A DNA stretch of 63,442 bases, filler included, from Stramenopiles sp. TOSAG23-6 (lineage: Eukaryota), in NCBI GenBank assembly GCA_900128565.1. It is 24 parts of 24 records of this genome, joined end to end, with 100 filler letters (N's around TTAATTAATTAA, not from the genome) between each part and the next. Parts side by side here need not be neighbours in the genome. Positions count along the whole stretch, not along the records: positions 34,496 to 37,040 come from LT637972.1; positions 37,141 to 39,685 come from LT637973.1; positions 39,786 to 42,329 come from LT637974.1; positions 42,430 to 44,971 come from LT637975.1; positions 45,072 to 47,612 come from LT637976.1; positions 47,713 to 50,253 come from LT637977.1; positions 50,354 to 52,893 come from LT637978.1; positions 52,994 to 55,533 come from LT637979.1; 16 more parts are not named here. One strand, 5' to 3'. The notes under the pieces are model-generated. The model made no database searches and was not told the origin of the DNA. It saw only the letters and a list, made by a program, of their open reading frames with translations. How positions within the stretch are numbered: the first letter of the stretch is position 1; the number at the start of each line of letters is the position of its first letter. The position numbers and the translations under genes were made by a program. Shown here piece after piece: positions 18,497 to 54,110 of the stretch.

Positions 18497-18651
18497 NNNN
18501 NNNNNNNNNNNNNNNNNNNNNNNNNNNNNNNNNNNNNNNNTTAATTAATTAANNNNNNNNNNNNNNNNNNNNNNNNNNNNNNNNNNNNNNNNNNNNATTT
18601 TTTTTTTTTTTTTTTTTGGATAATAAAACAAAAACATTCAAAAAAACGTAC

Positions 18652-31943: not shown

Positions 31944-34200
31944 TCATGTGGTCTCTCTATGTTAAAAAATCATGTGATTGAAAATATAGTTCAGTCTTTA
32001 CATGCTCAACCACCAAAGACAAATGCAGCTATTGAGACAGCAATCAAGGTGATGTTTAATCTTACTCTATGCGAGGGATGTATGTTTTTTTTTTTCAATT
32101 TCGAATTTTTTTTCGTACGAAATTTTATACCTAACGATTTTTTTTGTTTTTGAAATATTTTTCTAAAATACATACGTCCCACAAGACAATCGAACGGATG
32201 TTTCAGCATCGGATATTGTTGTCACTGAAGGAGGTGCTCATGCCATTATGGATGCTATTGTGGAAAATTCAGATAGTGTAACATTGTTACTTATGGGTCT
32301 TGACGTTTTGAATGCAATTTCAGAAGATCTCAGTGTCACAAAGAAACTTCTTAAATGTGGTATTGTCCCGCTTTTAGTTTCTACAATGCAGCAATTTGAT
32401 TATGATGATGAAATCATTTCATCTGGAACAGAACTGTTAGTTACACTAACTGCTTCCGAAGAGGCAGTTCACGAACTCTGTGAAAAAAATGGTTTGCAAG
32501 TATTACTCGCTGCATTAGATACGCATGATGAAACACCAACGATCCGAGATAATGGAACTGCTGCTCTACAAGCCATCTGCAGACACGAAAAGCACCGGGG
32601 TGCAGTACATAGTGAAGGCGGAATTGACACACTTATTCGTCTTTTGGCAATCTACCCCACAGAAACTTATGTATGTTTTATTTTTTTTTTTACAAAAAAA
32701 TCGAATTTGTTTTTTTATAGGAAATTTTATACCTAACCATTTTTTTTTTTAACGAAAAAAAAAAAAAAATATTTTTTCACAATGTATTTTGTACGAATGG
32801 GACTTGCTGCATTACGTCAACTAAGTCAAGGAACTTCCGAAGGCACATTTCTTTGTCAGTATGTTGCTGAAGAAGGAATGAGCACAATTGTTGAAATTTT
32901 ACGTACGAATTTCCAAAATACAGAAATTTTGGATGATGTGTTTCGGCTCATATCTTTGCTCTCTTTTCACAAAGAAAATGTGAATATGTTGGTACAGGCA
33001 AATGGAATTAGTTGGATAATGCAAGCAATTGGTACTCATGCGGCTTGTGAATCCTTAATGGTCCGATGTATCAAAACTTTAGATTTTATTGCTATAGCTT
33101 CAGTTGACTACGCAGCTATTGTGAATCTTCATGATGGTGTTGGAGTTATTTCAAGAATTGCGACGGCATATCCACATAGCCAAGAGATTCAAAAAGCTGC
33201 AAATAGCGCATTAATATTCTTGAATAATAAAGGGGATGGAGTGAAGCGAAAACGATTTGCTCGACCATCAGAAGATCCAAGTGAATATTTGGAAGAAGAA
33301 GAAAAAGGAGAAGTACGTAGTGAAAGTAGTACTCCACCACCGCCATGTATGTTTTATTTTTTTTNAANTTTTTNTTTTTTTTTTNCATACGAAATTTCAT
33401 ACCTAACGATTTTTATTGTTTTGCTACAATTCGTATTTTTTCACAATACATGTGATGATGATGGGAACCCTAACCCTCCTCCTGTGGTATCGTTTGAAGA
33501 TGCCCTTCCTGAGAGATTACGTAGAGTTTCATTATCCAATGGCAGAAAACAAACTCGGGGACATTCTTCAATCGCTGGAGGTGATGTTGCTCTTCAATGT
33601 CCTGTAAATATTGTAAATCACTTACAAGCACATCCACAAAAGTTCAATGTACGTTTTCAATTTCGAATTTCAATTTTTTTTTTCCATACGAAATTTTGTA
33701 CCTAACAATTTTTTTTTGATTTTTTTTTTTTTTCACAAAACATGGTGCAAGATTAGTGTCTGGGTTTTTAGATAAGAGATCACGAAAAAGTGGTCGAAAT
33801 TGGAAAAAACGTTGGTTTGAAATTCAGACAGATGGCACACTTGCATATTTTAAAAAGGATTCTGATAAGGAAGCTATATACGTGCTACCACTTGGACCAA
33901 ATTCTAAAGTCTCAATTTGTGTACGGTTACATTATGAATTTCGAATTAATTTATTTTTTTCATACGAAAATTTGTACCTAACAAATTGTATAAAACAAAC
34001 AAAATTTCACAATACATGAACCTGGAAAATTTGGAAAAAAACATAAATTTACTTTTGAGATCAATATAGATTCATCTACATCTAATCCTGATGATCCTCC
34101 TTTATACTGTTGTGCTGATGATGAAGATGAACAGGGCCGTTGGATATACGCTTTAGAACAGGTTATAAAAGTTAGACATAAAGACTATGCGTTTGACCCT
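31944..34200 (+). CDS. Armadillo-repeat protein with C-terminal PH domain, partial
   Basis: ARM-like GIVPLLV / GGIDTLIRLL repeats; PH motif SGFLDKRSRKSGRNWKKRWF...LAYFK...RWIYALE. Confidence 0.82.
32080..32173 (+). mobile_element. GT-AT introner-like intron
   Basis: Restores the frame (T|AC). Confidence 0.88.
32671..32787 (+). mobile_element. GT-AT introner-like intron
   Basis: GTATG...CACAATGTAT; joins TETY|FVRM. Confidence 0.85.
33347..33451 (+). mobile_element. GT-AT introner-like intron
   Basis: Full consensus, 105 nt. Confidence 0.88.
33649..33743 (+). mobile_element. GT-AT introner-like intron
   Basis: Joins KFN|GARLVSGFL. Confidence 0.88.
33921..34017 (+). mobile_element. GT-AT introner-like intron
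   Basis: Joins VSIC|EPGK within the PH domain. Confidence 0.88.
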
Positions 34201-34395
34201 GTACGTTTTCATTATGAATTTCAAATTTATTTTTTTTTTGGTTTCGTACGAAATTTTGTACCTAACATTTTTTTTTTTTTTGAGTTTTTATTTCGATACG
34301 TTTTCATTATGAATTTCAAATTTATTTTTTTTTTTTGGTTTCGTACGAAATTTTGTACCTAACAAATTTCGAATTTAATTTTTTTTACAATACAT
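34201..34395 (+). mobile_element. Family intron with a near-complete tandem self-duplication
   Basis: TACGTTTTCATTATGAATTTC...GTACCTAAC occurs twice; a single CAATACAT end. Confidence 0.75.
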
Positions 34396-35489: not shown

Positions 35490-36964
35490 ATGATGAATAG
35501 AAAAGATTCTCAAAATGAGGAAGCAGAGGAAACAAAAGTGTCTGTTATATATCAACTTCAGCCGAGTGGAAAAGAACTTCTCGCACAAGGTGTAGAGCAA
35601 AACTGTGACGCAGAGTGTTTTTCTACAGTTCGAGGAGAACCAAAGTTGAAGACTATTGATTTTTCAGGTTCAGAATTTCAACTTCGTACTTTAGATCATA
35701 TTGAATTTGTAGCTAGAAACTCAACATATAAAGCCAAATCTCGTGCTAAAGTTCGTGTGATTGACGTGAGTCATAATTTTCTTACAACATTAGTACAACT
35801 TTGCATTTACTCCCCCAAGGACGGACGAGATCATTGGGAAACAATGTTCCTCGGTGTGAAAAGTATAAACGCATCATTTAATAACATAAAATATATGTGT
35901 GATGGTTCACTAACACGTAGTACATGGCCTTTGCCTATGAGAAAACTACTAGTATTAAAATTGTCGTACAACAATTTGTGTGAAATGCCGGATTTGCTAG
36001 CCATGTTTGTTTTATTTTTTTCAATTTTTTTATCTAATTTTTTTTCGTACGTAATTTTGTACCTAACATTTTTTNTTTTTTNTTTTTTTNANATTTTTCC
36101 AAAATACATGCCAGTTTTACGTGTTTTACTTTTAGATCATAATAATATTTCAATTACTAGTGGGAAGTTTGCTACAAATATTCGAAATTTGAAAGATTCT
36201 TCTGTATCCTCTCATTTAGAAGAATTATCACTATCTAATAATAATTTAGAATGGACTCCAAATCAATTTGAAACGGATTATTCTTGTTTTAGTGTTTTAA
36301 CAAGTTTGAATGATTTAGATCTATCAAATAACCCATTTTGTGAATCTATCCGAATGTATTTTTTATTTTTTTTTAAATTTTGAATATTTTTTCGTACGAA
36401 ATTTTGTACCTAAGAAAAATATTTTTTTTTTTTTGAAATATTTTTCCAAAAAACATGTTTGATATTTATATATTAAGTACAATGCTTAAAAATAAGAATA
36501 TTTCAAAATTTAATGGCAATGTTATTAGTGACTCTATACGATTTCGTGCTTCGAGTATGTATGTTGTTGTTTTTTTCAATTTTGAATTTTGAATTTATTT
36601 TTTTCAAAAATTTTTGTACCTAACAAAATTTTGAAATTTTTTTTTGAATTTTTTTTCAAAATACAGTGGTCAATTTAATGCAAAAAATTTTTGTTCTTCA
36701 GGTAAATCTCAAACACATAATTTAACCGCAATAAAAGATTTATTCCCAAAAGGCCAAGCTTCTGAAGTTTCAACTATTTCTCAATTAACAAATATACTTG
36801 AAGAATGTTTATCAATACCAACTGAGGCCTCATTCCGAATGACTGAATTACAGTGGGCAACATTAGCAATATCCGAATCGGAAAAAGAGATACCTTTTTT
36901 ATTTGAAGATGAAAATTTGACAACTTTTTCAACTACGACAAATAATGATGAATTTGTTATACAT
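35490..36964 (+). CDS. Leucine-rich-repeat protein, partial
   Basis: LKLSYNNL, LLLDHNNI, LSLSNNNL, LDLSNNPF. Confidence 0.82.
36005..36109 (+). mobile_element. GT-AT introner-like intron
   Basis: AT|GTTTG...CAAAATACAT; joins LLA-M-PVLRVL. Confidence 0.88.
36356..36456 (+). mobile_element. GT-AT introner-like intron
   Basis: GTATT...CAAAAAACAT; restores the frame. Confidence 0.85.
36559..36666 (+). mobile_element. Family intron with canonical AG end
   Basis: AT|GTATG...GTACCTAAC...CAAAATACAG. Confidence 0.85.
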
Positions 36965-37452
36965 GTATGTTTTATTTTTTTTTCAAAAAAATTTTTCGTA
37001 CGAAATTTTGTACCTAACAAAATTTTTTTTTTTTTTTTTTNNNNNNNNNNNNNNNNNNNNNNNNNNNNNNNNNNNNNNNNNNNNTTAATTAATTAANNNN
37101 NNNNNNNNNNNNNNNNNNNNNNNNNNNNNNNNNNNNNNNNCTTCTTCAAATTCTGTAACTTGTAAAAGTGTTTCGCGTTCATTCAATCGCATCTCCTCCA
37201 TAACGTAATATATATATGAATGTTAGAGACACAAGTAATACAAAAGTAAAATCTACTCCTTCCAAGTTTAACTTCCAAAAAAATCAAAATAGAAAAAAAA
37301 TCGTGATCGATCTGGCTTGCGCTTTGATGTCATATTTTTCGATTTTGACCGTCGAACTTCGAAGTCGCTGGCCATTGGCCAATTTTGACAAGTCCTAAAG
37401 AAGAGCTTTAAAAGCTACGCGACCACACGACGATAAATCAAAAAACTTATTA

Positions 37453-39274
37453 ATGTTATTTCAATGTTTGCTCTATTTGACTGCAGTGGTCAGTATTACT
37501 GCACTCATGTCGGCTCCTGAAATGGCGCCTCGCACACTTGTTTTAATAGAGGAGGACAGTCTGCGCAATACGCACTCTGCATTTTTTGCGCAGTTAGAAT
37601 CTAGAGGTCACAGGTTGACTTTTGCCACGGCACAAGACCGTGGAGTACGGCTTCGTAAATTTGGTGAATTTATGTTTGATAATTTGGTGTTATTTGCACC
37701 TTCTATTGACGCTTTTGGTAGTATTGATGTACCTGCAGTGTTAGCTTTCATAGATGAAGGGCGTGGTAATATGCTGCTTGCCGCTAATTTCGATACATCA
37801 GACACTATCCGTGACCTTGTATCTGAGTGTGGCATTGAGTTAGATGAAGAAGGTAGTATTGCAATCGACCACCTCAATTATGACAAACTCGATCCACTTT
37901 TAGATCACACTTTGATTATGACAAATAACTTTATTGATTCTCCGTTACTCGTTGGAAAACTTGACAAAAGATCAGCTCCTGTCTTATACTCTGGTATTGG
38001 TATGGCTGTCTCTGATGATAACATACTTGCTTTCAAAGTGCTCACTGGTGAAGCATCGACATATTCAAACACTATTGATATGCCGGTGGTAGACTATCCA
38101 CAGAGTGCAGGATTGGATGTGTGTTTTATTTTTTTCAATTTCGTATTTATTTATTTTTTCGTACGAAATTCCGTACCTAACAAATTTTACAAAAAAAAAA
38201 TATTTTTCACAATACATACTCTTTTAGTAGCTGCGATACAAACACGAAATAATGCAAGAGTTGTCGTTTCAGGTTCTCTTGAACTTTTTTCTAATCGCTT
38301 TTTCGACGCTTCCTTAAATCCTGCGTCAAATTCGTCAGAGTTTGCAGGTAAAAAAACAAATAATGCTGATTTTGCGGATAATATCTCTCGCTGGAACTTT
38401 AGAGAACGTGTACGTTTCTCATCATGAATGTTTTACCCAATTTTTTTTTCATACGAAATTTTGTACTTAACGATTTTTTTTTACAATTTTTTTTTCAATA
38501 CATGGAGTTTTAAGAGCTAGTCGTGTTTTTCACTCTCTAATTGATGGGTCGCCTCCAGCTACCCAGCTATCTCATCCAAAGGAGGTTGAACTTCCACGTA
38601 CATTATTTCCTGAGCCTGAAATTGCTAGGGATAATAAAGTATATCGAGTGAAGGACAATGTGTTTTATTCTGTGTTTCTTGAGGAATATGTATGTTTTAT
38701 TTTGTTTTTTTACAAAAAATTCGATTTTTTTTTTATAAAAATTTTGTACCTAACAAATTTTTTTTTTTGGTAAATTTNGAAATATTTTTTCAAAATACAT
38801 GATCACGAAATAATCTCAGGTGATAAACGAGGAGGTTGGGTTCCTTTCAAGGCTGATGACGTTCAGTTAGAATTTGTCATGCTAGACCCTTATATCAGGA
38901 CTACTCTACAGCATGATGATAAAGGAACATTTTCCAAGACGTTCATGACTCCTGATGTTTATGTATGTTTTATTTTTTTTTTTTTTACAAAAAAATCGAA
39001 TGTTTTTTTTTATAAAAATTTTGTACCTAACAAATTTTTTAGAATTTTTTTTCAAATATTTTTCGAGATACATGGTGTATACAAGTTTAGAGTGATGTAT
39101 CGTCGTATTGGCTACACTACACTGCAATTTGAAACTCAAGTTGCTGTTAGACCATTCAGCAGTTTTGAATTTGAAAGATTCATTCTTTCTGCCGTTCCAT
39201 ATTATACATCAACATTTTCTATGATGAGTGGCTTATTTATTTTTTCTTTTCTATTCTTGTACAATAGAAGTTGA
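37453..39274 (+). CDS. DDOST: Oligosaccharyltransferase 48-kDa subunit (OST48/Wbp1), 5 exons, complete
   Basis: Signal peptide, THSAFF..L..RG, QTRNNARVVVSGS, DDVQLEFVMLDPY, PDVYGVYKF, ERFILSAVPYY, C-terminal TM helix. Confidence 0.96.
38119..38217 (+). mobile_element. GT-AT introner-like intron
   Basis: Joins YPQSAGLD|TLLVAAIQ. Confidence 0.93.
38410..38503 (+). mobile_element. GT-AT introner-like intron
   Basis: Joins WNFRER|GVLR. Confidence 0.92.
38690..38800 (+). mobile_element. GT-AT introner-like intron
   Basis: Joins LEEY|DHE. Confidence 0.9.
38963..39073 (+). mobile_element. GT-AT introner-like intron
   Basis: Joins PDVY|GVYKF. Confidence 0.95.
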
Positions 39275-39300
39275 GAGACTTTATTCCTCCTACGGGGTGG

Positions 39301-39379
39301 GTAAAATTTGTTAGGTACGGAATTTCGTACGAAAAAATAAATAAATTCGAAATTGAAAAAAATAAAACACACATCCAAT
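39301..39379 (-). repeat. Inverted copy of 38112-38190 (DDOST exon end plus 5' part of intron 1)
   Basis: Reverse complement matches with one mismatch. Confidence 0.85.
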
Positions 39380-39785
39380 GGGTAAAAAAATAATTTTGTA
39401 CACTTTTTTACTAGTAGTAGTCTATATTACAATGATGTCGACAATATACTTGTACGTAACTCTGGATTATGTACCATGTTTTTTGTATTTTTTAGTCTAT
39501 ATATAGATTATATAACGGATAAATAATGACGTCACCACGAAATATATATGCTAATCGTAATGATAATAATGATAATAATGACGTCACAGGCGGCATTCGG
39601 CTGTTTCGGCAAGAAATGGCCAAGAAATGTACTCTACCGGTAAGTCTATATTTGCACAGTACTAGCTACGAGTAGTAGCAAAAACNNNNNNNNNNNNNNN
39701 NNNNNNNNNNNNNNNNNNNNNNNNNNNNNTTAATTAATTAANNNNNNNNNNNNNNNNNNNNNNNNNNNNNNNNNNNNNNNNNNNN

Positions 39786-40434
39786 CTCAGAGTTTGATAA
39801 AGTCCACAAACACCTTTTAACCAATGGCCAATTTCATATGCATTTGTACGGAAAATCCCACCCGCTGTTTTTAAGTTAGATGCATGTATTGATATTTTCC
39901 TGTGATTATTTTTGTCATCTTTTTCGTCAAGTAATACTTTCCAACGATTCTGAGAACTTTTAACTGGTTCGACTGCAATACCAAATTTGCCATTTAAGGC
40001 AGAAGAAGTTTGTAGATTGTGAATTCGAACTTTTACATTCGGATAAATTGAAGTTGTTTCAACTGTAGGTTCGTCGTGATTTCAGAGAGTTCGTCTAATA
40101 AACTGCGTGCTTCAGGAGGGTAGTCATCAATGAAAGAGCGATACCCGATTCTTTCTTTTTTTTGTTTAGCGAATTCTAATATTCGTTTGAACAAATTATT
40201 ACATGCAGTGTTGTTTTTAACAAGGCTACCTTCAGGGTTAAAGATGTCTTTTGTAGAAACCTGAAGTATTGGCGATTCAAAAAATATTGGCTCAAATTTT
40301 CTAATGTTTCTTGTGGCAATAATTTTTGTATACCCTTCATCCTTTATAATCTTATAACATGGACACATGTCGAATTCACCGTGAAATCTGAGTTCCTTTT
40401 TTAATGCTATTGTAGTATCGTAAAGTACTTTCAA
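39786..40434 (-). CDS. SET-domain-like protein, partial, with an apparent frameshift near 40040-40080
   Basis: IIATRNIRKFEPIFFESPIL, then in another frame IFRTNAYEIG...GLYQTL. Confidence 0.5.
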
Positions 40435-41095
40435 CAGTTCATACGGTAGTTATTCATATAAGTATAGAATCTGATAACAAAAAAGTGATATCAATATTCG
40501 TTGTTCCAGTAGAAAATTCCTCATTTTAATGTTGGGCAGGTTTGTCACATTTTCGACCGCGTGTAAATTCAGTAATTTTTTTCACCTTTTTTTTTCCTTC
40601 AAGTTTCAACCTTGCTTCCCTTGGGCTTGCTTCATGAACACGACTTCATTTGACAACCAAGAAGGGATTTTAACAACTTCTTGACTCTTGTTAGTTTTTA
40701 CATGAAAACAAAAAGGATAGGTATTATTTGTCTCTATCTTTTTTGTTTTCTATGCCTTCTTTTACATCACTCGTAATTTATGTTAATATACCAGATATAT
40801 ACAATGCGCTATGTATGATAGATGCACTCGGCTTATTCAGTGTCGTTTGCACAGAAATATAACGCTATATTCAAGTCATTTTTCGTTTTACGGAGTGAAC
40901 ATACCACCGTGTCTCTTTGTAATTATGTTACCGTGCAATATTAAGCAAAAACATGTTTATGTGTTTCTCTTTTATTTATATTGTTACTTCTATGTCTTTC
41001 ATTTAAAGTGTTATTTCATGTTTATGTAATATACGTAACTCCTTACTCTTTCTTTTTTGTTTTCACTGTAGACCATTCATTGGCTACATTTATGT

Positions 41096-42086
41096 TTATA
41101 CGATAATACCACCTCCATTTTCACGAAATTTCTTGGAAAAAGTTGCTTCAATGTTTCCCTTCAATTGATTGGATAGTTTATTACCACTGAGGTTGATTGC
41201 GGTAATTGAAGTGTGAGAAGCCAACACAACAGAGATTTGCTCCGCCGCATCATCTTCTAGCCAATTCCAACTAAGGTTTAATTCAATGAGATTTTCCATA
41301 GACTGTAAAATAGAAGCAATGGCAATGCCACCTTCAGGAAATAGTTCAATACAGGAGAGATTGACCTTTGACAGTTTGCTTAATTGTAATAAAGCTCCAG
41401 AGAGATACTTTGCACTCTTTTTTTGTATTTTGTTATTACTAATGTCTAGTTCTCTTAGAGTGTTCAACCTACTTAACGACTTTGCAAATGCTTCAAAATT
41501 GTCAGAATTTATTTGACAACCACTCAAGTGAAGCTTTGTGAGCTTCAGTGAATCATTATATCCTACAATTCCATCTACAATAGCCTTTGCACCATTTGTA
41601 CCGAAACTATTCTCACTTAATATTAAAACTTCCATATTATTTAGTTTTCCTATTTCACTTCCCACTGAAATTGCGCCGGGTAAACCAATATCATTCCAGC
41701 CTATATCGATGTGCTTCAGAAATTGTAGAAACTCCGACAGAGCCAATTTCATTATGTGAAATGTCTAAACTTGTGAGCATCGTTAACTCTTTCAAAGCCT
41801 TAGCAACTGTCTGTGTCGAATTAGCATTGATATTATTACCTCCTAGATTCAATTTTATAAGGTCCTGTAATCGAGGCAAGTGTCGACAAATCACATCTAT
41901 AGACTTTGGACCACAGTCATTTCTAAAAACATTTAAATCTGTGAGGTGACTTTGAAATGGAAGAATTGCTGCAAGCTTTAGACCTCCTTGTGGACCCAAG
42001 TTGTGATTATACAAATTCATGGTATGTGATGCTACCCAAGCTTCGTCTTCTGCGGCGTTCATACGTTCCGCTACATTTGAAGACAT
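41096..42086 (-). pseudogene. RNI-type (28-aa) LRR protein with a frameshifting deletion near 41715
   Basis: Two overlapping ORFs with L.L..N.IG repeats; could be an assembly error. Confidence 0.6.
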
Positions 42087-42277
42087 TTATATAAAAATAT
42101 TGTTTCAGTAGTACTAGTTAAATCTTCTTGGGTGACTACAACAATTTGGTAGATACTTTGTAGACTTCTACGGGATATAGTAAGTACTAAAATTACCTGT
42201 ATACTAGCTAGTGTAACTGTAGTATTTCTTTGTTTTTGGGTAATGATTACTCTTTGTTCTCGAAGTCATTCGTCAAT

Positions 42278-42329
42278 GGGGTGTAGCTCACTTGGTAGAG
42301 CGCTCGCTTTGCATGCGAGAGGCAGGGGG
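42278..42329 (+). tRNA. tRNA-Ala(TGC), 3'-truncated at contig end
   Basis: GGGGTGTAGCTCA..TGGTAGAGCG D-arm; CTCGC-TTTGCAT-GCGAG anticodon arm. Confidence 0.92.
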
Positions 42330-42504
42330 NNNNNNNNNNNNNNNNNNNNNNNNNNNNNNNNNNNNNNNNNNNNTTAATTAATTAANNNNNNNNNNNNNNN
42401 NNNNNNNNNNNNNNNNNNNNNNNNNNNNNAAAAAAGATAAAAAAAAAAAAAAACAAACTAATCAAATATCAAATAAAGATAAAGATTTAGCATTTGCAGA
42501 CCTA

Positions 42505-43554
42505 ATGGCAACACCACCACCAATACACCAAAATTTCAAATCAGATGTAAATCAAAGTAATCGTACAACAGATCAAAACATAGGGACTCCAATTGGTATT
42601 TTAAGTGGATTTTATCCGATCAAAAGTCAAAAATCAAAGCTTACATCTCAGGAAATTGTAGGAAAGAAATCAAAAACGACACCACAAGGATTTGTACTAC
42701 GAAAAGGTTCAATAACTATACCTGAAGATAGTATTGATGCTCTCGGTGCTAATCGATATTCACAACCACCAAAACAGGAAGATTTTTCGGCACAAGATTT
42801 TGATTTTGACACTTCTGCTGATTTATTAATCCAAATGGCTGAAGCTGGTTCGAAGGAAGCTAGTGAACGTCTCGCGACATTATATAATAAAAAACAAATG
42901 CAAAATAGAGAGGATTTGTTTGATGATGTAAATATTTTGAAACAACCTATAACAAGCCCGGGTATACAAGAAACAAGAGATGTTGAAGACAAATTGAATA
43001 CAGCAAAAGTTAGCACTTTCAAAGTGTCTACTGATTTGACTGGTTTTATAACAAAAGGAGTGAAAATCTCTAAAACAGATGATAAATTAGATAGTTGGAG
43101 TAAAGTAGGAAATATTTCAAGTAATAAAGAAGAAAATCCACAAAGGAAAATTTATTCAAAACAAGATGAATTTACATCTTCAATAGATAATGAGTCAAAA
43201 ATATCCAGGAGTACAACTTCTAATAAAAGTGAAAAAATAACTAAAAGTAGTACTACTTCAAATGAAACGTATACTGAAAGTGGAACAAATACAAGTTTCG
43301 AGTATTCATTCGAAGACTCATTTGAAGAGGATGAATTAGAATTCCCTAATATTAAGCAAAAGGATAAAAGGGATGGTGGTCTCCTGAGTCTTATTGCGTC
43401 TCAAAAAGAAGTAAAAGATACCAACCCAGCCGATGATGAAAAAGATACCAACTCAGCCGATGATGTCGCAAGTGAAACATTTGGAAGCAGTTTTGGGCTA
43501 GAAGATGCGTTTGAATTTGATTCCTGGGATTCTGGAGGTTCTGTCACTGTTTAG
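42505..43554 (+). CDS. Hypothetical Ser/acidic protein
   Basis: 349-codon ATG-initiated ORF. Confidence 0.6.
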   Translation: MATPPPIHQNFKSDVNQSNRTTDQNIGTPIGILSGFYPIKSQKSKLTSQEIVGKKSKTTPQGFVLRKGSITIPEDSIDALGANRYSQPPKQEDFSAQDFDFDTSADLLIQMAEAGSKEASERLATLYNKKQMQNREDLFDDVNILKQPITSPGIQETRDVEDKLNTAKVSTFKVSTDLTGFITKGVKISKTDDKLDSWSKVGNISSNKEENPQRKIYSKQDEFTSSIDNESKISRSTTSNKSEKITKSSTTSNETYTESGTNTSFEYSFEDSFEEDELEFPNIKQKDKRDGGLLSLIASQKEVKDTNPADDEKDTNSADDVASETFGSSFGLEDAFEFDSWDSGGSVTV

Positions 43555-43615
43555 TTTTTAATATAAAAATGAAATTTGCTTTTTTGATTATAACTTTTAT
43601 TTCCTAATACAAAAC

Positions 43616-44950
43616 TCAATTCATCTGTGGCGAAAATCCATTTTTCTTCGTTGAAGTATCTGTAGGTCTGTAAGCTGGACTCGTTGGCGAATACGCTGGG
43701 CTTGTTGGACTATAAGCAGGGCTTGTTGGACTATAAGCAGATGACATTGGAGATGCTCCATCACCTCCGACGCCAAATCCAACTCCTACATCATCAAATC
43801 TTGGTGTTGCTCCAGGACTTGACATTCCTGGCGAAAACTGTAGATCCATACCTGGCGACATAATATCTGTCATTGGAGATGCAAGGATATTACCGCCAAG
43901 AGCTCCATGCATTGGAGTTGCAGCATTATTTACATCAGGTGTAACGACATCAAATCCTGTATCAACAGAAACAACATTTCTCGGTTCATATGGCATTGCT
44001 GAAAGCAGTGCATCTTCATCTAGTAACAATTCCATATCCCCAGATCCCATTGGGCATAATTGACCTAACATGACATTTTCTGTAACGCCCTTGAGTGGAT
44101 CTCTTTCAGCGAGAACAGCTGCATCCATTAAAATTTCAACAGTTTCCTCAAATGAGCATCTCATGAGCGGTCCAGAATCAACTCTGTTGATACCATGACG
44201 TGTAATAGGCATAAAGTGGCCACGACATGTCATAACATCAGCAAGCATTGCCAAATGTCTATAATTAACATAGGAACCATCAAATGAGATAACTCTCCTA
44301 ACTTCATTCAGTAATGCCGCACGAGCACCTTCGATACCAAATACCTGAATAGCTTCAACTACATCATTCGAAATAGTTCTTGTAGCATTTACATCAGGAT
44401 GACTGAGAACTTCTAGCAGATTTGTACCATCTGTATCAAGCACCCATTCATCTTTACTCTCAAAGGAATCACCGGTCCATACTTGCCGTTTGGCTTGTCG
44501 CATATATACTTTTGTAATACCCTCTATTCCACGAAGCTCCATTTGCGATAACATATTTTCTTCAATCTTTTTCAAAAACACATCTTCTTCATTGTCACCT
44601 GGTAAGGCATCTTCATCGTAATCTTCCTTTTCGTCATTATTCATTATACGAATACGTAAAACCAGATTTTCAGCGTTATCGTCAGAACGAATGCAAAGCA
44701 AATCATCTTCAAAATAATCTCGAATTTTGTTTGCAATTTCGGACATTGTAAGAAATTTATCCGTCATCGCACCAGTGTTTAATTCAATGCGGAGTAACCA
44801 AGGTGAAACTTGTTCCATATCAATTTCCTCATCCGGCATTTCAAAGTATTGTCGCACAAAATCACGGTCAGCTTCTATAACAGAATTTTCAGGGTCAGGA
44901 TCATACCATATAGATGTACTTGCAGTTACATCCTTGAGGGTTGTCCATTC
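43616..44950 (-). CDS. RPB1: RNA polymerase II largest subunit, C-terminal part
   Basis: SPWLLRIEL, WVLDTDGTNL, FDGSYVNYRHLA, LMRCSFEETVEIL, YSPTSPA heptads. Confidence 0.98.
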   Translation of the reverse strand, partial: EWTTLKDVTASTSIWYDPDPENSVIEADRDFVRQYFEMPDEEIDMEQVSPWLLRIELNTGAMTDKFLTMSEIANKIRDYFEDDLLCIRSDDNAENLVLRIRIMNNDEKEDYDEDALPGDNEEDVFLKKIEENMLSQMELRGIEGITKVYMRQAKRQVWTGDSFESKDEWVLDTDGTNLLEVLSHPDVNATRTISNDVVEAIQVFGIEGARAALLNEVRRVISFDGSYVNYRHLAMLADVMTCRGHFMPITRHGINRVDSGPLMRCSFEETVEILMDAAVLAERDPLKGVTENVMLGQLCPMGSGDMELLLDEDALLSAMPYEPRNVVSVDTGFDVVTPDVNNAATPMHGALGGNILASPMTDIMSPGMDLQFSPGMSSPGATPRFDDVGVGFGVGGDGASPMSSAYSPTSPAYSPTSPAYSPTSPAYRPTDTSTKKNGFSPQMN

Positions 44951-45171
44951 TTACTGCCACTGTACCATTTTNNNNNNNNNNNNNNNNNNNNNNNNNNNNN
45001 NNNNNNNNNNNNNNNTTAATTAATTAANNNNNNNNNNNNNNNNNNNNNNNNNNNNNNNNNNNNNNNNNNNNTAGAGTCATATGTCCTCCGTCCTGAGAGA
45101 CTATCTCTTGCAGTGTAATACGTTATGATAAGTATTACTACTATTCAAGTACTGTGTAGTTAAAGGTTAAT

Positions 45172-45987
45172 ATGACAAGTGAAGAGCCAACGAAGTTATG
45201 GGCTCCACATGAGGACTCAACTTTGTTGATGGCAATTTATGAACGACCCGAGGTTGCAAATGAGGATAAAAACTGGGCATTTGTCTCCTCAAAATTGCCC
45301 CACCGTTCTGCAAGTGAGTGTCAAAGCCGGTGGAAAACACATATTGACCCAAAACTTACTGTTCTCGGGGATACAAACGCAAGTGTACCTCCGTGGTATC
45401 GGACTGATTTTGTGCTAAACCCAAAGTCAATTTACTACTCAGAAGGTACACCTGCAGAAATGAGTATGGCTTTAAACCAGTTGCACAGTATTTTGAATCA
45501 ACCCGTGCAAACGGGTAAAAGGCCCGTTGGCCGACCCAGAAAAGTTCAACAGCCAAAGATAGAACCAACGTACTTCAATGAATTGAGAAACTCAGTTAAT
45601 GGTATAAAACATTCTCGAGTTAGTTGTAACCAAGTACNACCCAATAAAACACAGTATTTACCACAGACACAAANACTCAATNATAATAAAGGTAAGCAAA
45701 AGCGAAGACGTTTACAATCTCTTGAAAAAATTAGAANACAAATGGGAGGAGACCAGAAATGGCATAGTGTGAACCACGATGAACTGAGAANTGTTATGAG
45801 ATGCCAAATTTTACGTTTGCTNGACTCGAAGGGACACTCGGAAGATGCGATGGTTACAAAAGAGAAGAAGCAGAATCTAGCAGCGATAGTGGAATCATAT
45901 TTGTATCAATTTGCACATTCTCNTGAAAATTACAGCGANTCTTTATCTTTGCGTCAACGTGTTACAGAAATTATTCATAGATTATAA
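45172..45987 (+). CDS. Myb-domain protein with an AT-hook and a possible KIX/Med15-like C-terminus
   Basis: WAPHEDSTL...WAFVSSKLPHRSASECQSRW; KRPVGRPRK. Confidence 0.75.
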   Translation: MTSEEPTKLWAPHEDSTLLMAIYERPEVANEDKNWAFVSSKLPHRSASECQSRWKTHIDPKLTVLGDTNASVPPWYRTDFVLNPKSIYYSEGTPAEMSMALNQLHSILNQPVQTGKRPVGRPRKVQQPKIEPTYFNELRNSVNGIKHSRVSCNQVXPNKTQYLPQTQXLNXNKGKQKRRRLQSLEKIRXQMGGDQKWHSVNHDELRXVMRCQILRLXDSKGHSEDAMVTKEKKQNLAAIVESYLYQFAHSXENYSXSLSLRQRVTEIIHRL

Positions 45988-46016
45988 AAGGAAATTATTC
46001 ATAGAAACATAANTTA

Positions 46017-46613
46017 TTATTTCGTTTTACCTACTGTTAAATAACTCAAAGTCCCTTCCTTTATCATCTTTTGGTTATTCAATTCAATTTCAAGTAATTG
46101 TTTTTCCTGTGACTTCATCATTGAAATCATTTGTTTCAATTTTTCCTTTCGGGACAGATAAACATTATTTATCGATATCACAGACGTATCACTATAGGAA
46201 GACTTGTCAACTGTGACGTCATCATTGTTCGTTGAACTGACCTCATTTGTCAAATAAGTTTTATCTTTCACTGTTTTGCTTATATCATACACGTGTTCTA
46301 TAGTATTGCGTCGTTGCTCGTACGCATGGTTAGCTCGAGTTGTCTGCAACTCCTTTGACAACAAAGACAAAACTCGGTCACATTCTACAGATATAGTTTC
46401 TAATACTCGCGCTTCCTTTATCACGCTACCCAATTTTGAACTACTTACCTTACAAGTCTTGACTTTAGATCCTTGAATCTCTTTGGCATCTAAATGTTTG
46501 GCTCCATTTTGTATGGGCGAGGCACCTGCTATTGCATCAACTATGAACTTCTCAACCTTGCAAGCGGAACGGTCAAATTGGTGCTCAAGAATGCCGCAAA
46601 TGTCAGTCATCAC
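46017..46613 (-). CDS. Hypothetical protein
   Basis: 198-codon ORF. Confidence 0.45.
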   Translation of the reverse strand: MMTDICGILEHQFDRSACKVEKFIVDAIAGASPIQNGAKHLDAKEIQGSKVKTCKVSSSKLGSVIKEARVLETISVECDRVLSLLSKELQTTRANHAYEQRRNTIEHVYDISKTVKDKTYLTNEVSSTNNDDVTVDKSSYSDTSVISINNVYLSRKEKLKQMISMMKSQEKQLLEIELNNQKMIKEGTLSYLTVGKTK

Positions 46614-47014
46614 TCTACTATCAACAACATATTGATTAGCAGGATTGCTATATTGAAGACACCGAATATCAATAAAGTGNAGTGGTGATAAAAGCTAGAT
46701 ACCACAACTTATACGCTGCTCAATTTGTTGTATGGAATACTAACAACTTTAGTGAGAATACGTCTACTACACGTCGTACCGAATTGTATTGTACCGAATT
46801 TGGACTTTTGACCTTTTGTCACCGAAAATTCATTATAACCCTAACCCTAGCTGGCTGTTTGGAATATTGAAACTGTCGTGTGCTAACAAATATACTGGTC
46901 CTACGGACGTATAATAGCTAATCCTAATCACTTTTATTATATGTTTTGTCATAAAAATGCAACAATTGAAAAAGTTTTACTGTTCATAGAACAACAACCT
47001 AATTCTAAGCATCA

Positions 47015-47527
47015 ATGATATCTCGTCCTGGAACCCGAAAGGAAGAAGGCTACGTAGAGGCTAAACGTCGTGAAGCGGCTGAGCTAGAGGCAAAATTAGC
47101 ACAAGAAGCTCGAGAAGAAGATTTAAAACGCAGGGCAGAAGAAAAAACACGAGCTCTTAGAAATAAACAACTTGATGAAAAGAGAGCTTCTGCGACAAGA
47201 ATTTCTCGTATGCGCACTCTTTTGGAATCGGCATTAGATGGAACGACGAAAGCGGGAACAGTTCGTCTAGATCCCGAAAATTATTGGGCGTATAAGACAA
47301 TAAAACCTGGAAATGCAACTCATTATCCGAGTCAAGGAGGATCTGTACGAATACAATACACATCATATCTTCCAGATGGAACCATATATGACACAACAGA
47401 TGCACGAAATAAACCCATCACTTTTTTAATTGGGCTTGGTCGCGTTATTCGAGCATGGGATGAAGCACTGGTTCAACTAAGCGTTGGTGAAAGTATTATT
47501 CTTTTGACATTCCCTCAAAAGGCATAT
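47015..47527 (+). CDS. FKBP-type peptidyl-prolyl isomerase with N-terminal coiled coil, partial; family intron starts at 47528
   Basis: YTSYLPDGTIYDTT..RNKPITFLIGLGRVIRAWDEA...P..AY. Confidence 0.9.
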
Positions 47528-47716
47528 GTTGGTTCTCCAACTGAATTTCAAATATTTTTTTTTCGTACGAAATTTTGTACCTAACAAATTTTAGTTTTTT
47601 TTTTGAAATATTNNNNNNNNNNNNNNNNNNNNNNNNNNNNNNNNNNNNNNNNNNNNTTAATTAATTAANNNNNNNNNNNNNNNNNNNNNNNNNNNNNNNN
47701 NNNNNNNNNNNNATAC

Positions 47717-48775
47717 TTCGAGATTTGATAGTTGACCAATTTCTGCTGGAATTTTACCCGATAGTTGATTGCCTTTCAAGACCAACTTAACAACACTAGT
47801 GCGTGTACGATTACATGTTACACCATGAAAATCGCAAACACGGCTATCTTCTCTCCAATTTGAAGGTCGGTTAGAGAATTTCATTAAAGCTTTTCTTGCA
47901 TTTAGAATTTCTTGTGACGGGCACATACTGTATATATCACCTCCATCATATGACACTTTACAAGTGTTAGCATATTTACAAAACGATTTCCGGGAAAGGT
48001 CTGTGCATAAACCTGTGTTTTTTGATAAGTCCAAACTTTGGAGTTTTTTCAGTTGACCAATTTCTTTTGGAATTTCACCCGATAGTTCGTTGTTGTTCAA
48101 GCTAAAACGTCTGAGATCTGTTAGTTCACCAATTTCTTTTGGAATTGAACCAGATAGATTGTTGTTTTCCAATTGCAAGGTGTAGAAATTTGTTTTTAGG
48201 TGACCGATTTCGTATGGAATTGAACCAGATAGTTGGTTGTTTTTCAATTTCAAATGCCAAAGGCTTGTTAGTTGACCAATTTCTTTTGGAATTGTGCCAT
48301 GTAGGTTGTTGTCATTTAATCCCAAATATTTGAGACTTGTTAGTTGACCAATTTCTGTTGGTATTGAACCAGATAGTTGGTTTATGTGCAAGACCAATCC
48401 TTTAAGACTTGTTAGTTGTCCAATTTCCGTTGGAATTGTTCCAGTTAGTTTGTTGTCATCCAATCTCAAATCTATGAGATTTTTTAGTTGACCAATTTCT
48501 GTTGGAATTGAACCAGATTGGTTTCTTTCTTTCAGTTCTAACCCTATTACAGCGGTTTCATCAGGATTGCACTTTACGCCCGACCAACTGCAAACAGGAT
48601 TAGATTCATTTATCTCCCAGGGTGGAAAATTTACCCACCCCCAACGGTTTCCACAATTTGCGAAAAAGAACTGCGCATACAACTTTTGTAGAGCATCCTT
48701 TTCTTCATCAGATACTTCACCTTTAGCGCAATAAGTAATAAATACCATCAATAGTGCAAGTAATTTCATCATCAC
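47717..48775 (-). CDS. Secreted/receptor-like protein with plant-type LRRs and two LRRNT caps, partial
   Basis: Signal peptide, CSWSGVKC cap, LSGSIPTEIGQLTSL repeats, second cap CDFHGVTC. Confidence 0.9.
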
Positions 48776-49191
48776 TTTTCATGTATAGGTACAATAGCAT
48801 GTAAAGACTGTAAAAGAAACGTATTGTTGCGCTCTCTTCAATAGACGATTTCTATTGTAAACACAAAAAAAAAATTAAAAAAAGATAGCAAAAGATAGCA
48901 AATCATCGAATCCAAACATCAGCTGCAATAAATCGAAATCAAAATCGAAATTAGACCGCGTTTTTTTTTGTTTGATCCATCAAATAAATCAATTCTTAAT
49001 TTTTTTCCTTCCTCTTGAATATCAAACTCACAGAGTTAGAGAGTCTTTTAAAGTGAAAGGATTCCCCTCAATTGTTTACGTATATTATATATATATTAAT
49101 TATACATACCATCCATTTGCAAAGGCTGATTACGAAAAAAAAAATCAGAAGGTAGAAACATTTGCTTTTTCAGTATATCTTATTAATGACA

Positions 49192-50034
49192 ATGCAGAAT
49201 AGGATCCCTCGTAATAGTGTTAAAAAAGAAGGGAAGCAACTTTGGAAGAGTGTATTACGCCAAAGATTAGTTGCCCGTGTAAAGAAGAAGCGAAAAAGTA
49301 TACTTGCCGATCGCCGTAGAGGAGTTGGCTCTTTAAAAGCTGAGCGAGAAAAACTTAAAGCATTAGTTTGTGAAGAATGGAACGCTTGTGCTCCAACTTC
49401 AATGAGCATATGCACTGATGAAAATATAAACGGTAATAAACATGTAGACATTGACATAGAGGATATTATGGGACGGAATGAATATATAGACATGATGACA
49501 TTTTTAGAGGAGTCTCTGTATGAAGAACTTCAGGCGGAGGAAGACGCTTTATTATCAAGCATGAGCGCCTTGGGCATGAAAGAGCGTGATGCAAAGGACC
49601 TAGAAGCGTGTGAAAAAGCTGAAAAAGCTGAATTAGAAGCTCTAAGTGCATTAGTTACACACCATGAAAGTAATGAAGAGGAATCTGTTTTATGTCCCTG
49701 CTGTACAAAGGGCTACTTACAGCAATCTGTATGTTTTCAAGATGAATTTCAGTTTTTTTTTGTACCAAATTCCGTACCTAACGTTTTTTTTTCTAAAATA
49801 TTTTTTCACCTACATGCCAATGGCGTCATTTTATGTACCTGTGGAGTGCGAATAGACACACGAACGGACGGAATTAGTTTGACACAACTAGCGGAATTAC
49901 TTGGCCAAACATATCAAAAGCATAACTCTAAATGTACCTCAAAAATTGAGTTTAAAGTTCAAATGAAATTTGCCTATCAGCAGATGCTTGTGGCAGAGTG
50001 TAAAAGTTGTGGATTGTTTGAAATTGTTGTTTAG
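49192..50034 (+). CDS. RPAIN: RPA-interacting protein-like, 2 exons
   Basis: WK..LRQR..ARVK..R N-terminus; C-terminal CP.C, CTCG, H...C, C..C zinc module. Confidence 0.75.
   Translation: MQNRIPRNSVKKEGKQLWKSVLRQRLVARVKKKRKSILADRRRGVGSLKAEREKLKALVCEEWNACAPTSMSICTDENINGNKHVDIDIEDIMGRNEYIDMMTFLEESLYEELQAEEDALLSSMSALGMKERDAKDLEACEKAEKAELEALSALVTHHESNEEESVLCPCCTKGYLQQSVCFQDEFQFFFVPNSVPNVFFSKIFFHLHANGVILCTCGVRIDTRTDGISLTQLAELLGQTYQKHNSKCTSKIEFKVQMKFAYQQMLVAECKSCGLFEIVV
49729..49815 (+). mobile_element. GT-AT introner-like intron
   Basis: CT|GTATG...CACCTACAT; joins YLQQS|ANGVILC. Confidence 0.88.
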
Positions 50035-50354
50035 AAGCCAATTAGGGTTAATTACATATATTAATAATATAAAGCTTCAGCTACATATACTAATAACTAA
50101 TGCCATATAATGAAAGTATTGAGTTCAAATATCATTATATATAGTTTATAAATGACAATTGTATAATATGATAAAGCTTTGGTACGTCATATATATATGA
50201 ATATTCTAATATTATATACAAATTCCATATCTAATTAATTATATTACTCTTTTNNNNNNNNNNNNNNNNNNNNNNNNNNNNNNNNNNNNNNNNNNNNTTA
50301 ATTAATTAANNNNNNNNNNNNNNNNNNNNNNNNNNNNNNNNNNNNNNNNNNNNC

Positions 50355-50445
50355 ATGTATTTTAGAAAAATATTTCAAAAAAAATCCTTAGGTACAAAAT
50401 TTCGTATGAAAAAAAAATCAAATTTGAAAAAAAAATAAAACATAC
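50355..50445 (-). mobile_element. GT-AT introner-like intron
   Basis: Splits an EF-hand loop after DADDS. Confidence 0.85.
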
Positions 50446-50895
50446 ACTGTCATCGGCGTCAATTTGTTCAAACAAAAGTTTTGAACGGCAAAATATGCTA
50501 TCGGTATTAAATGTGCCCCCTAAATCTTTGTCCAAATTATTTCCTATTAAAGTAGTACTCGCGCTTGTACTTTTTTTATATGTGGCTCCTTTTTTTACCC
50601 CACCTTGAAATCCTGAAACATATGATTCCGCATGTTTTAGCCAAGGCTCAAAACCATCGTCTGAAGCTGCTGCCCAAGCAAAAAATGCAATCCATTCACT
50701 CATATCTATTCGCATGTCACGTTTCTCTTCACTGCTTTGTCCATCACACCACCGCAGATAATCTTTTGCCAATTCACCGCCAAATACCCGCTTGAGTTCT
50801 GAGTAGTTCAAAACACCTGAGTTGTCAATGTCAATGCTCTTAAAGACTGCTCGTGCTCGATCTTCATAAGGCGCATCTATGCATGTTTCATTCAT
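50446..50895 (-). CDS. EF-hand calcium-binding protein, first exon
   Basis: FKSIDIDNSGVLNYSEL; FEQIDADDS. Confidence 0.82.
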
Positions 50896-51300
50896 TTGGA
50901 TTAATTGGATTTTATATTATCCAATGTAGCAAAAGCTTTGTTTTGAGCAATAGGCAAATGAAACCACTGCTATTGTTTTAATAGGATGTTGATAGTAATA
51001 GTATTCTAAAGTACGACCGTTAAAAAAGTATAAATAACGGTCATTTTCCCAAAAGTAGTCGTAGCTTTTCCCTTGGTAGCTTAATACGTACTATCTACGT
51101 ATGCAACTTACGACAACGTGTAGCTATTTAATAAATACACAAACTACAACAACCCTTAAAATCTTATTTTAAATGGATCTTCCACATAGGATTAGTTTTT
51201 GCTGCCATGCAGACTTCCAACATTGAAAGACAAATAAATGTAAAAAGAAAAGAATCTTCAAAATAATAACAACTTAAAAGTTCTCACCGTCAATTTTTAA

Positions 51301-52564
51301 ATGTTCCCCAAGCAGGGAGTTCCAAACTTTACTTATCGAACAACGAATGTTAAAAGCTCAATTTCTACTAAAGATAATATTGCTTCTGAGACTAGCAAAT
51401 CATTTTTAGAGGAAATCAATTTTACAAAGAAGAAAAAGAATGAAAAGCGTACTTCAAAAGAAGTGAAAGATATTAATCGTTTTTTGTTACAACGCTTAGC
51501 CTTTGGGACACAAAACTGCCCAAAAACAGCTAGACATACACTAAGAAGTCGGAGTCGATATAGAAGATTAATTATTTCACATTTCCCAAAACCTCGACCC
51601 AAAACTCCTGTGATTATACCACCTTTATTAGCAGAAAAACTTGATATTCTTGAGAAAAATATCACTTGTGATTTGCCTGAAAATGCAGAAAAGTTCAAAA
51701 AGTCTTTTCATATCAGTGAAAAAAAAAAAAAAATAGTTGGAGAATTGGCAAAAATGTCAAATGCCTCTTCAAGTAAATCAACCACTTTCTCACAAGATCC
51801 AAAGTCGTTTATTTTCAATTATGAAAAAGACTTTTGTGATCGTCACATACTAAAAAAACGCATTACAGCATTTAGTGTGACATCTGCAGTTCAAATTCAG
51901 AAATACCAATTCTCCAATTTGGGTAAAAGTGTAAAAGAGGAAAAACCTTTGATATGTAATCTATGCCAGTTACCTATATTATTTCCAAATCCATTTTCGA
52001 TAGGTCGGGGTTCCAAATGTATGTTTTCAAAATTATCTAAATTGATCTAAAATTATCTAAATTGTGTTGAACCAAATTTTGTACCTCATGAATTTTTTAA
52101 CCAAAAAAAAAAAAAAAAAAAATATTTTTTCACAAAACATCATCCCACTTTTCTTATTACTGTATAAAATGTTCTTTCCAGGCATGTAGTAAATGTGTCA
52201 TGAATCAAAAACGCGCAAGGATTAAATCAGCAATTGCATCTATTATGGCACAAACAGCAGCAACTTTTGCTTGTGCTATTGCCGAGGAGACTTGTACATT
52301 TTCATGATTATTTTTTTACCTAAATTTGTTTTCGTAGTAAATTTTGTACCTAACGAGTTTTTTACTACATCAAATAATAAAAATATGTTTCACAACACAT
52401 TATCTTTTGTTATAGAAAAGACAAAGGCTTTTCGAGCCAGACGCGAAGCTGCAATTTGGGCCTTAGGAAGACATATCGTTTATCGTAGACGTGATGTTGT
52501 CCCTGAAAATAAGTTAAGATCAATATTGTATAAAAGGAGTCACAGAAATTTACCACATAAATAA
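51301..52564 (+). CDS. Hypothetical protein with a Cys-rich zinc-finger-like segment, 3 exons
   Basis: CNLC...YYCIKCSFQACSKC assembled after removing two introns. Confidence 0.6.
52019..52140 (+). mobile_element. GT-AT introner-like intron
   Basis: GTATG...GTACCTCAT...CACAAAACAT. Confidence 0.82.
52294..52400 (+). mobile_element. GT-AT introner-like intron
   Basis: TT|GTACA...CACAACACAT. Confidence 0.82.
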
Positions 52565-53049
52565 ATGAGTTTTTATTTGATTTTTATACAAGTTTATGCT
52601 ATAATGTCTCATTTAAAAGTAGTTGAAGTTTTTCCATATTCCATTCTAGAATGTCAACGATATCCCATGTACAATAAATTGTTTGTGTACAAACCAAGTA
52701 TACATGATTCTACCATACGATTCCCTATAAAAAATATTTTACCCTAACCCTAACAAACCAAGTATACATGATTCTACCGTACGATTCCCTATAAAAAATA
52801 TTTTTCACATTTTTTTCTTTGGCATTGACAGATGTATGATGAAAAAATATTTCAAAAAAAAACTANAATNTNTNTTCTNTGNAAANTTTCGTANNNNNNN
52901 NNNNNNNNNNNNNNNNNNNNNNNNNNNNNNNNNNNNNTTAATTAATTAANNNNNNNNNNNNNNNNNNNNNNNNNNNNNNNNNNNNNNNNNNNNATTTTGT
53001 ACCTAACAAATTTAAGTTTTTTTTTTTGAAATATTTTTCCAAAATACAT

Positions 53050-54110
53050 GAAAATGTCTTTTATCCAATTATATTCCAAGAACCCAAAGAAGAAGAAATA
53101 ATGACAAAGTCTGCTGATAAGAATGTGGTGAACCCTAATTCTAGTTCAACAGATGATGACTATAAAATTGCAGTATGTTTTGCTTATCTTAGAAATGTGT
53201 ATCAACATAGTCTTATTAATACTTCAGTATTTGAATTAGTTGTTAGTCAAATGATCCGATCAAAAAGATATAAAGTATTAGATCAATTTCTTTTATATCA
53301 CAATTCTTACGACTCAATGCAATTAGGAGTAGTTTTAGCAGAAGCAGCTCTCTTTTATCCTGTACGTTTTCATTTCAATTTCGATTTTTTTTTTTTTTTG
53401 GTAAAAAAAATTTGTACCTAACAATTTTAATTTTGGAAATATTTTTCATACTCCATCCTCTACGATGTCGTGCGAATGATGTAATGATGAAATTGAAGGA
53501 ATCGGACAATATCATCAATAATTTATTGCGTAATAATGAATTATTTAGAGCAATGCGAATTGTTTTATATCGAAGCAAATCATCTACTTATCAACCGAAA
53601 CATTTTGCTTCAAATACTAGTCAAAATAAGACGATATTATTTAATAGATATAATCGAAATTCAGCCGAATTACAAGAAATAAGATACACGCCAAGCAAAT
53701 CTCGTGTTGAAAAGTTCTTTCTCACTGCTTTGAATATTTCATATACAAAACTCCATCAAACTCAAAATAGAGAGTCAATGTCTTCTCCTTCGGAATATTT
53801 GGAACACCAATGTTTGTATGTTTTCATTATTAATTTAAATTATTAATTTAAATTATTTATATTTGTTTTCATAGAAAATATTGTACCTAACGAATTTTTT
53901 TTTACGAAAAAAAAAAAATATTTTTCACAATACTTGATGGTTTTTCGTGGTGTTCAAAATTTCTTTGAAAAATGGGCACACAGCCCAGTCACCTCATTAG
54001 GCTCATCTGGAGTTTTAAAATTACCTCCCATTGGATCTGTACATTCGTTATCAGAACCAAATTTTGGTGGATTAAGAGAAAAAGTTATTCAATTGTTTGG
54101 AATAAAATAG
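53050..54110 (+). CDS. RMC1: Regulator of MON1-CCZ1 (Mic1/C18orf8)-like, 3' part
   Basis: L.QFLLYH..DS..L...FYPP...D.M.KL....I...LL pattern. Confidence 0.72.
53362..53456 (+). mobile_element. GT-AT introner-like intron
   Basis: CT|GTACG...ATACTCCAT; joins FYP|P. Confidence 0.87.
53816..53935 (+). mobile_element. Family intron, GT...TT variant
   Basis: TT|GTATG...CACAATACTT; opens a final exon of about 58 codons. Confidence 0.82.

Follow-up and report, generated by a model that had tools for sequence, protein, structure and literature searches.

The AG that closes an intron is among the most conserved signals of eukaryotic gene expression. The question raised by a 63,442-nucleotide stretch of DNA from Stramenopiles sp. 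TOSAG23-6 (GCA_900128565.1), an uncultured protist from the sea, hereafter the window, is how its genes are spliced when most copies of a repeated intron family end in AT. An original prediction had proposed that these introns are removed from GT to AT and not from AT to AC, and had left open a third register, TG...CA, shifted by one base. We conclude that removal as GT...AT by the major spliceosome is very probable.

The assembly (21.1 Mb, 6,236 contigs) is AT-rich, redundant and incomplete, and the window consists of short contigs chained with N spacers. Positions 1-13200 hold five identical contigs; the 2,657-base period seen there is assembly redundancy and not a tandem array. Prp8 from this genome clusters with Ectocarpus in a 12-member clade (support 0.987) of a 59-sequence tree with one named stramenopile, a thin basis on which the host is likely a stramenopile.

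The intron family and its ends

Copies were called from ~0.9 Mb (the window and fetched loci). A motif placed the 5′ end; for the 3′ end, motif and independently scored reading frames were combined. The last two intron bases were left unscored and exon position -1 was likewise unused. Frames were available for 189 unique copies, of which 167 could be called (18 of them in the window) and 22 could not. Calling by motif inflates the count of GT starts and the agreement at intron positions +4 and +7, not that at exon -1.

The element is ~84-156 nt long, with ends GTAY...RTAC. Its sequence runs from GTAYGTTTT through a T-rich stretch, which holds a TTTCRTACGAAA-like motif, to the branch motif GTACCTAAC, a second T-rich stretch and AATACAT. 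The internal TTTCRTACGAAA-like motif occurs in 139 of the 167 copies, against 2.6 in shuffles. The branch motif is present in 144, 31-47 nt (about 38) from the intron end, and the tract past it has a T fraction of 0.5. A CTRAY branch site and a U-rich tract, both features of U2-type introns, are found, and the terminal YAG is mostly missing: AG ends just 9/167 copies. In detail, the last dinucleotide is AT in 126, TT in 16, AG in 9, GT in 5, CT in 4, AC in 4 and another in 3. The final base is T in 151 copies, CAT or TAT closes 124, and GT opens 155, a count inflated by the motif call. By start and end together, the classes are GT-AT (118), GT-TT (14), GT-AG (9), AT-AT (5), GT-GT (5), GT-CT (3), GT-AC (3) and AT-TT (2), with eight others found once each.

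Genome-wide, the branch motif has 8,029 matches (4106 + 3923) against 51 (31 + 20) for the reversed control. The first figure is inflated because contigs are duplicated in the assembly; the abundance of the family is far above chance. Its host genes span many Pfam families. A heuristic intron scan, biased because candidates had to begin with GT, contain a CTRAY motif and be flanked by strong coding sequence, returned 87 candidates, 85 from the family and 2 from outside it, which suggests that the family dominates the intron complement. With such dominance, a change in U1 would be selectable.

The scan overlooked both odd introns near 15.2-15.7 kb. They lie in a probable GMC oxidoreductase gene, which holds a GT-AG intron at 15187-15282 and, at 15608-15700 (+), an intron of 93 nt that lacks the family core; removing the latter as AT...AT yields HWDILDTW.

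Register of removal and the matching U1

Most copies are flanked by AT on both sides, as originally described, and these symmetric copies yield the same mRNA in the competing registers. Two junctions fix the register by homology. In an amino-acid transporter gene (locus L097, junction at 5481), the GT register gives Arg, TG gives Cys and AT-AC gives a stop; the homologues have Arg in 12/12. In a formate-tetrahydrofolate ligase (FTHFS) gene (L070, junction at 9885), where the copy reads AT|GT...AG, GT gives Leu and both TG and AT-AC give Val; among 80 bacterial homologues, 79 have Leu, one has Ile and none has Val. As the residues at both junctions fit the GT register alone, TG...CA is rejected along with AT...AC. 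Position -2 also separates the registers. In 27 copies the change is confined to the exon side and in 7 to the intron side (p=0.0008); at codon third (wobble) bases the corresponding counts are 14 and 2. AT...AC is rejected by this one-sided variation, since it indicates that the upstream copy of the dinucleotide behaves like exon sequence and its downstream counterpart like a splice signal.

The junctions on which the original prediction relied can be read as it read them: RERGVL in the GT and TG registers against REHGVL in AT-AC at 38410-38503, and FYPPLR (GT) against FYHPLR (AT-AC) at 53362-53456. Its appeal to RMC1 homologues for the latter fared less well. Of two, read by eye, one has YPPL and the other YEPS (Pro 1/2, His 0/2), and the WBP1 homologues vary at the 38410 junction (Arg 2/9, His 0/9); homologue support at these two junctions is weak. 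Copy 36559-36666 does read AT|GTATG...AATACAG, with AG where other copies have AT, and the bases before the final AT do vary (GT at 32787, CC at 29671 and 53456, AA at 26259). At 61715 the reported TG before AT is present, and an end at 61718, with AA before AT, is equally in frame. The assertion that the final AT persists is only mostly true because the last two intron bases copy the last two of the upstream exon; the intron at 53816-53935, for example, ends in TT after a TT exon. This 2-bp target-site duplication had been overlooked, as had the altered U1 small nuclear RNA (snRNA).

The sole U1 detected, present on two contigs, begins AAACGUACAUG, where the Rfam consensus has AUACUUACCUG. 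CAT|GTAYGTTT is the complement of this 5′ end, in which the three altered bases lie opposite exon -1, intron +4 and intron +7. At these positions the 167 copies carry T in 150 (G in 4), C or T in 164, and T in 166. The variant forms on average 9.07 Watson-Crick pairs of 11 with the copies, and the consensus U1 forms 6.83. Normal U1 geometry sets C8 opposite G+1, which places the cut before GT, and the conserved T at exon -1 is explained by its pairing with U1 position 9 (A).

The genes for U5, U2, U1 and U4 form a tight same-strand cluster (L113, 9-645). The U1 carries an Sm-site-like run, and its loops also depart from the Rfam consensus. The branch-pairing region of U2, loop 1 of U5 and the ACAGAGA box of U6 are canonical. 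Neither U12 nor U6atac had a match at E<=1 in the incomplete assembly, in a search that did not extend to U11 and U4atac. Among metagenome contigs, the variant U1 had one match, which Rfam does not call U1.

Thus the GT...AT register first proposed is supported by U1 complementarity, the L097 and L070 homologues, the one-sided variation at -2, and a U2-type 5′ site with its branch motif. The same evidence supports the view of CAT as the positional equivalent of CAG and, together with the lack of a U12 or U6atac match in the incomplete assembly, the proposal that these are not U12 introns. The TG...CA register, once left open, is now contradicted by the homologues at both loci and by U1 geometry.

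RNA from seawater metatranscriptomes, in the form of assembled contigs, was compared with one window contig (37142-39685), which carries a WBP1/OST48 gene with four family copies. Three of the four are precisely bridged, two in X2 and one in X3 (record 21), X2 and X3 being one seawater sample. The X2 contigs span the copy at 38119 (99 skipped; side 33, flagged "between: not known") and that at 38690 (111). The next AG lies 10, 19 and 12 nt downstream of the three joined ends, so no AG is used at these joins. All three copies are symmetric, and the RNA therefore leaves the register unfixed. Runs X1 and X7 gave no exon-exon join and only pile-ups on the repeat core, with a summed depth of 6,000-19,000 at 38417-38501 and 39267-39351. 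These pile-ups indicate that unspliced or DNA copies, from the host or its relatives, were abundant there.

Target sites, rival explanations and a possible mechanism

Identical dinucleotides other than AT flank 19 copies on both sides, against 2.4 expected (0/20,000 permutations), and third-base identity is 61 against 53.8 +/- 4.4. Covariation of the dinucleotide with little excess at the third base points to a 2-bp target-site duplication, mostly AT, with TT/TT, GT/GT and CT/CT copies also present. The terminal inverted repeats are ~4 bp (GTAT/ATAC) and lack covariation: 58 copies have C at +4 against A at -6. The distant homologue proteins compared are free of the element. We infer that the family spread by DNA transposition.

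Were the upstream duplicate to start the intron and the element's own AC to end it, these would be AT...AC introns of U12 or U12-like type. The symmetric majority would give an identical mRNA, leftmost placement labels two of the symmetric RNA joins AT..AC, and the branch motif varies as little as that of U12 introns does. However, this register puts in-frame stops into a MatE gene and the amino-acid transporter, gives the wrong residue against 12/12 (L097) and 80/80 (L070) homologues, and would begin with a base that varies freely at wobble positions. The incomplete assembly has no match to U12 or U6atac at E<=1, and the U12 5′ consensus, ATATCCTT (RTATCCTT), differs from the 5′ sequence of the family; we regard this reading as almost certainly wrong. 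If a shifted spliceosome, or some other enzyme, cut one base further upstream, the introns would be TG...CA. The T before GT in 150/167 copies and the two-sided variation at -1 speak for it, but that T is accounted for by U1 position 9, and the register yields Cys where Arg is invariant and Val where Leu is nearly so. As it would also make the nine GT-AG members non-canonical, we consider it very unlikely.

Two further alternatives concern the machinery and the origin. One is structure-guided, non-spliceosomal removal, a route proposed for the nonconventional introns of euglenids, in which the inverted ends would pair and direct excision; the short inverted repeats with their flanking 2-bp repeat are what it calls for. 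Folding gives the four terminal pairs a mean probability of only 0.19 (>0.5 in 31/167 copies), however, and the pairs do not covary, whereas full U2-type signals and a matching U1 exist; this route is highly improbable. The other keeps GT-AT splicing and dispenses with the transposon: introns would have spread by reverse splicing at proto-splice sites of the form MAT|GT, or the change in U1 came first and the family only had to fit it. The downstream exon is indeed proto-splice-like (+1 G in 78/167, +2 T in 64/167), the inverted ends are only ~4 bp, and no parent transposase was found. Yet the dinucleotides on the two sides covary, the pattern expected of a staggered DNA cut, and reverse splicing is not known to make a duplication. 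We judge this origin unlikely, while giving it some weight.

Several observations weigh against GT...AT removal of a transposed element. No asymmetric junction lies under RNA, and 38410 is without cover in any run. All three joins come from a single sample, at depth 2.6-6.4 and with a few single-nucleotide polymorphisms, and an element-free allele might also produce them. Twelve of the 167 copies lack a GT start, nine of them beginning with AT. Variation at -1 is two-sided, with 11 left-only and 10 right-only changes (G in 1/11 and 5/10, respectively; p=0.063). The end calls are imperfect: besides the 22/189 uncallable copies, the copy at 38963 was called 12 nt short of its RNA end. The U1 is a predicted gene that scores 54.1 bits, below the Rfam cut-off of 69.5, and it is the single U1 seen among 41/253 candidates scored, so a second, canonical U1 is possible. 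Finally, a search for the parent transposon with DDE_Tnp_4, and with no other transposase family, gave 5 matches at 2 distinct loci, none with family ends.

Two loci were considered as the parent element and rejected. L213 has no link to the family. L214 has different ends and only a partial family core, and chance alone predicts one core in every 2.6 kb. At ~130-2700, L214 is an intact-looking element with convergent open reading frames and the partial core between them, and we take it to resemble PIF/Harbinger from its signature.

Under GT...AT removal, a short non-autonomous mobile element would have inserted thousands of times in genes, duplicating two target bases, mostly AT, and the major (U2) spliceosome would excise the element together with the downstream duplicate. 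The 5′ site MAT|GTAYGTTT would be recognized in vivo by the U1 with the complementary 5′ end. The near-invariant GTACCTAAC, ~38 nt from the intron end and followed by a U-rich tract, would serve as the branch site, with branching probably at the CTAAC adenosine, and so strong and yeast-like a site may commit the intron without an AG. The duplicate, usually YAT, would be the 3′ site, turning the canonical MAG|GT...YAG|G into MAT|GT...YAT|G. In a relaxed second step the terminal U may dock against G+1, possibly since Prp18 is missing.

A search for Prp18, run without a positive control, gave 0 candidates in the incomplete assembly, and U2AF35 was absent among its 16 CCCH matches (11 distinct loci read); both absences are leads only. 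A U2AF65-like gene is present, and its protein presumably keeps a ULM-like motif, which argues against loss of U2AF35. Prp8 (L116) lies in a 2,021-amino-acid open frame without a family intron. In its alpha-finger region it matches most homologues, as well as the human protein, whereas the nearby stretch that follows DKGWRV is divergent and unusual among the fetched homologues. A change in Prp8 was rejected as the cause, given the unchanged alpha-finger and a DKGWRV-adjacent segment that varies among homologues anyway. Yeast that lacks Prp18 uses CAU and UAU more than any other non-G 3′ site, in a manner dependent on poly(U) (PMC10711555).

A bolder version, which we put forward tentatively and think rather doubtful, is that U1 was rewritten at three positions including the one facing exon -1 and that AG proofreading (Prp18, perhaps U2AF35) was lost, making YAU the 3′ site by default, with almost every intron belonging to the family. 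If true, this would be a natural host whose splice consensus carries U in place of G at both -1 positions. A wild host that splices thousands of YAU-ending introns with the Prp8 alpha-finger unchanged would offer a direct test of how AG is enforced at the second step. Splicing of this kind also means that gene predictors of the standard type will fail for this lineage.

Table 1. Family introns in the window, with the evidence for each call
Feature	Position	Strand	Basis or remark
AG-ending family intron (AT|GTATG...AATACAG)	36559..36666	+	LRR-type gene; same configuration as the FTHFS (L070) intron
WBP1/OST48 intron 1, GT-AT, 99 nt, symmetric AT/AT, no in-frame stop	38119..38217	+	Frame call and RNA
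WBP1 intron 2, GT-AT, asymmetric GT/AT	38410..38503	+	Homologues, frame; RNA-uncovered
WBP1 intron 3, GT-AT, 111 nt	38690..38800	+	X2 contig skips 111, side 118
WBP1 intron 4, GT-AT, 111 nt	38963..39073	+	Pieces of X3 record 21 imply that 111 bases are skipped
GT-AT, asymmetric CT/AT, RPA-interacting protein gene	49729..49815	+	Frame call
GT-AT, asymmetric TT/AT, registers synonymous	52294..52400	+	Frame call
GT-AT, asymmetric CT/AT, RMC1 gene	53362..53456	+	Frame call, homologues
GT-TT intron, TT/TT duplication	53816..53935	+	Frame call
GT-AT, asymmetric GC/AT; all three registers differ at DNA level	25783..25918	+	Frame call
GT-AT, asymmetric AA/AT, near contig end	34509..34636	-	Motif
Symmetric GT-AT family intron	36005..36109	+	Motif, frame
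Symmetric GT-AT family intron	36356..36456	+	Motif, frame
Eight family introns in a single peptidase-like gene, mostly symmetric AT/AT	29474..31207	-	Motif, frame
Five introns in one gene: 32080-32173, 32671-32787, 33347-33451, 33649-33743, 33921-34017	32080..34017	+	

Some copies are unusual in form. The TT-starting copy at 30589-30699 (-) lies within an 8-nt direct repeat, and sliding it by 4 gives AT|GT...AT (30695-30585) with the mRNA unchanged. The gene around it, at 29300-31560 (-), presumably fuses a metacaspase-like portion with a subtilisin-like one (HGTHVAGS), as judged from motifs. Directly after the WBP1 stop, at ~39280-39380 (-), lies an inverted partial duplicate of the 38119 exon-intron junction that extends just past the branch motif and may be an amplification chimera. 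Internal tandem duplications with two branch motifs occur at 34201-34395 (+), 26096-26259 (+) and 63142-63310 (-). Outside the window, the copy at L061 6156-6249 (-) combines an AC/AC duplication with A at +1 and so has AT...AC termini alongside U2-type signals.

Comparison with known systems

Our searches of the open-licence literature showed no report of this family or of its combination of features. The family works like an introner, and of the introner features examined all were found save a cognate transposase. IE1 of Micromonas pusilla and other MITE (miniature inverted-repeat transposable element)-like introners are likewise similar introns at high copy number in unrelated genes with short inverted ends, and in introners, too, the element provides the 5′ GT and the target-site duplication the 3′ site (PMC11282704). 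The duplication there is 3 nt and supplies AG (PMC11282704), whereas here it is 2 nt and mostly AT, with TT, GT and CT as well.

By analogy, the closest parallel is Fritillaria. In F. borealis and F. pellucida, introns are also linked to transposons and spliced by the U2 machinery, the U12 snRNAs having been lost (PMC13326754). They end in AT in 34% and 44% of cases, with YAY both preceding the 5′ site and closing the intron (PMC13326754). In F. borealis, however, the main classes start with AG, the U1 5′ ends are described as unchanged, and adaptation involves U2AF paralogues and N6-methyladenosine (PMC13326754). Here, by contrast, the GT 5′ site is kept, one family dominates, U1 has changed and the host is a protist.

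Rewriting of the U1 5′ end to match an atypical dominant donor is known from Entamoeba and Mastigamoeba, with three changes spread over two lineages (10.1101/2022.06.08.495308). In the present genome, three changes fall in one U1, one of them facing exon -1, and, unlike in those amoebae, the U1 matches a repeat family with non-AG ends. A standard U1 was found in Micromonas, in Thecamonas and in 69 yeasts (10.1101/2022.06.08.495308). The family and its matched U1 offer a test of whether core snRNAs coevolve with intron-generating transposons.

In Saccharomyces cerevisiae deleted for prp18, CAU and UAU also serve as 3′ sites, helped by upstream poly(U) and with a proposed pair between G+1 and U-1, as a low-level error of a mutant (PMC10711555); here such an end is the normal one for most of the introns detected. 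The ingredients each have a precedent, in introners, in the 3′ AT of Fritillaria and in the U1 of Entamoeba, and their combination is notable for the matching U1.

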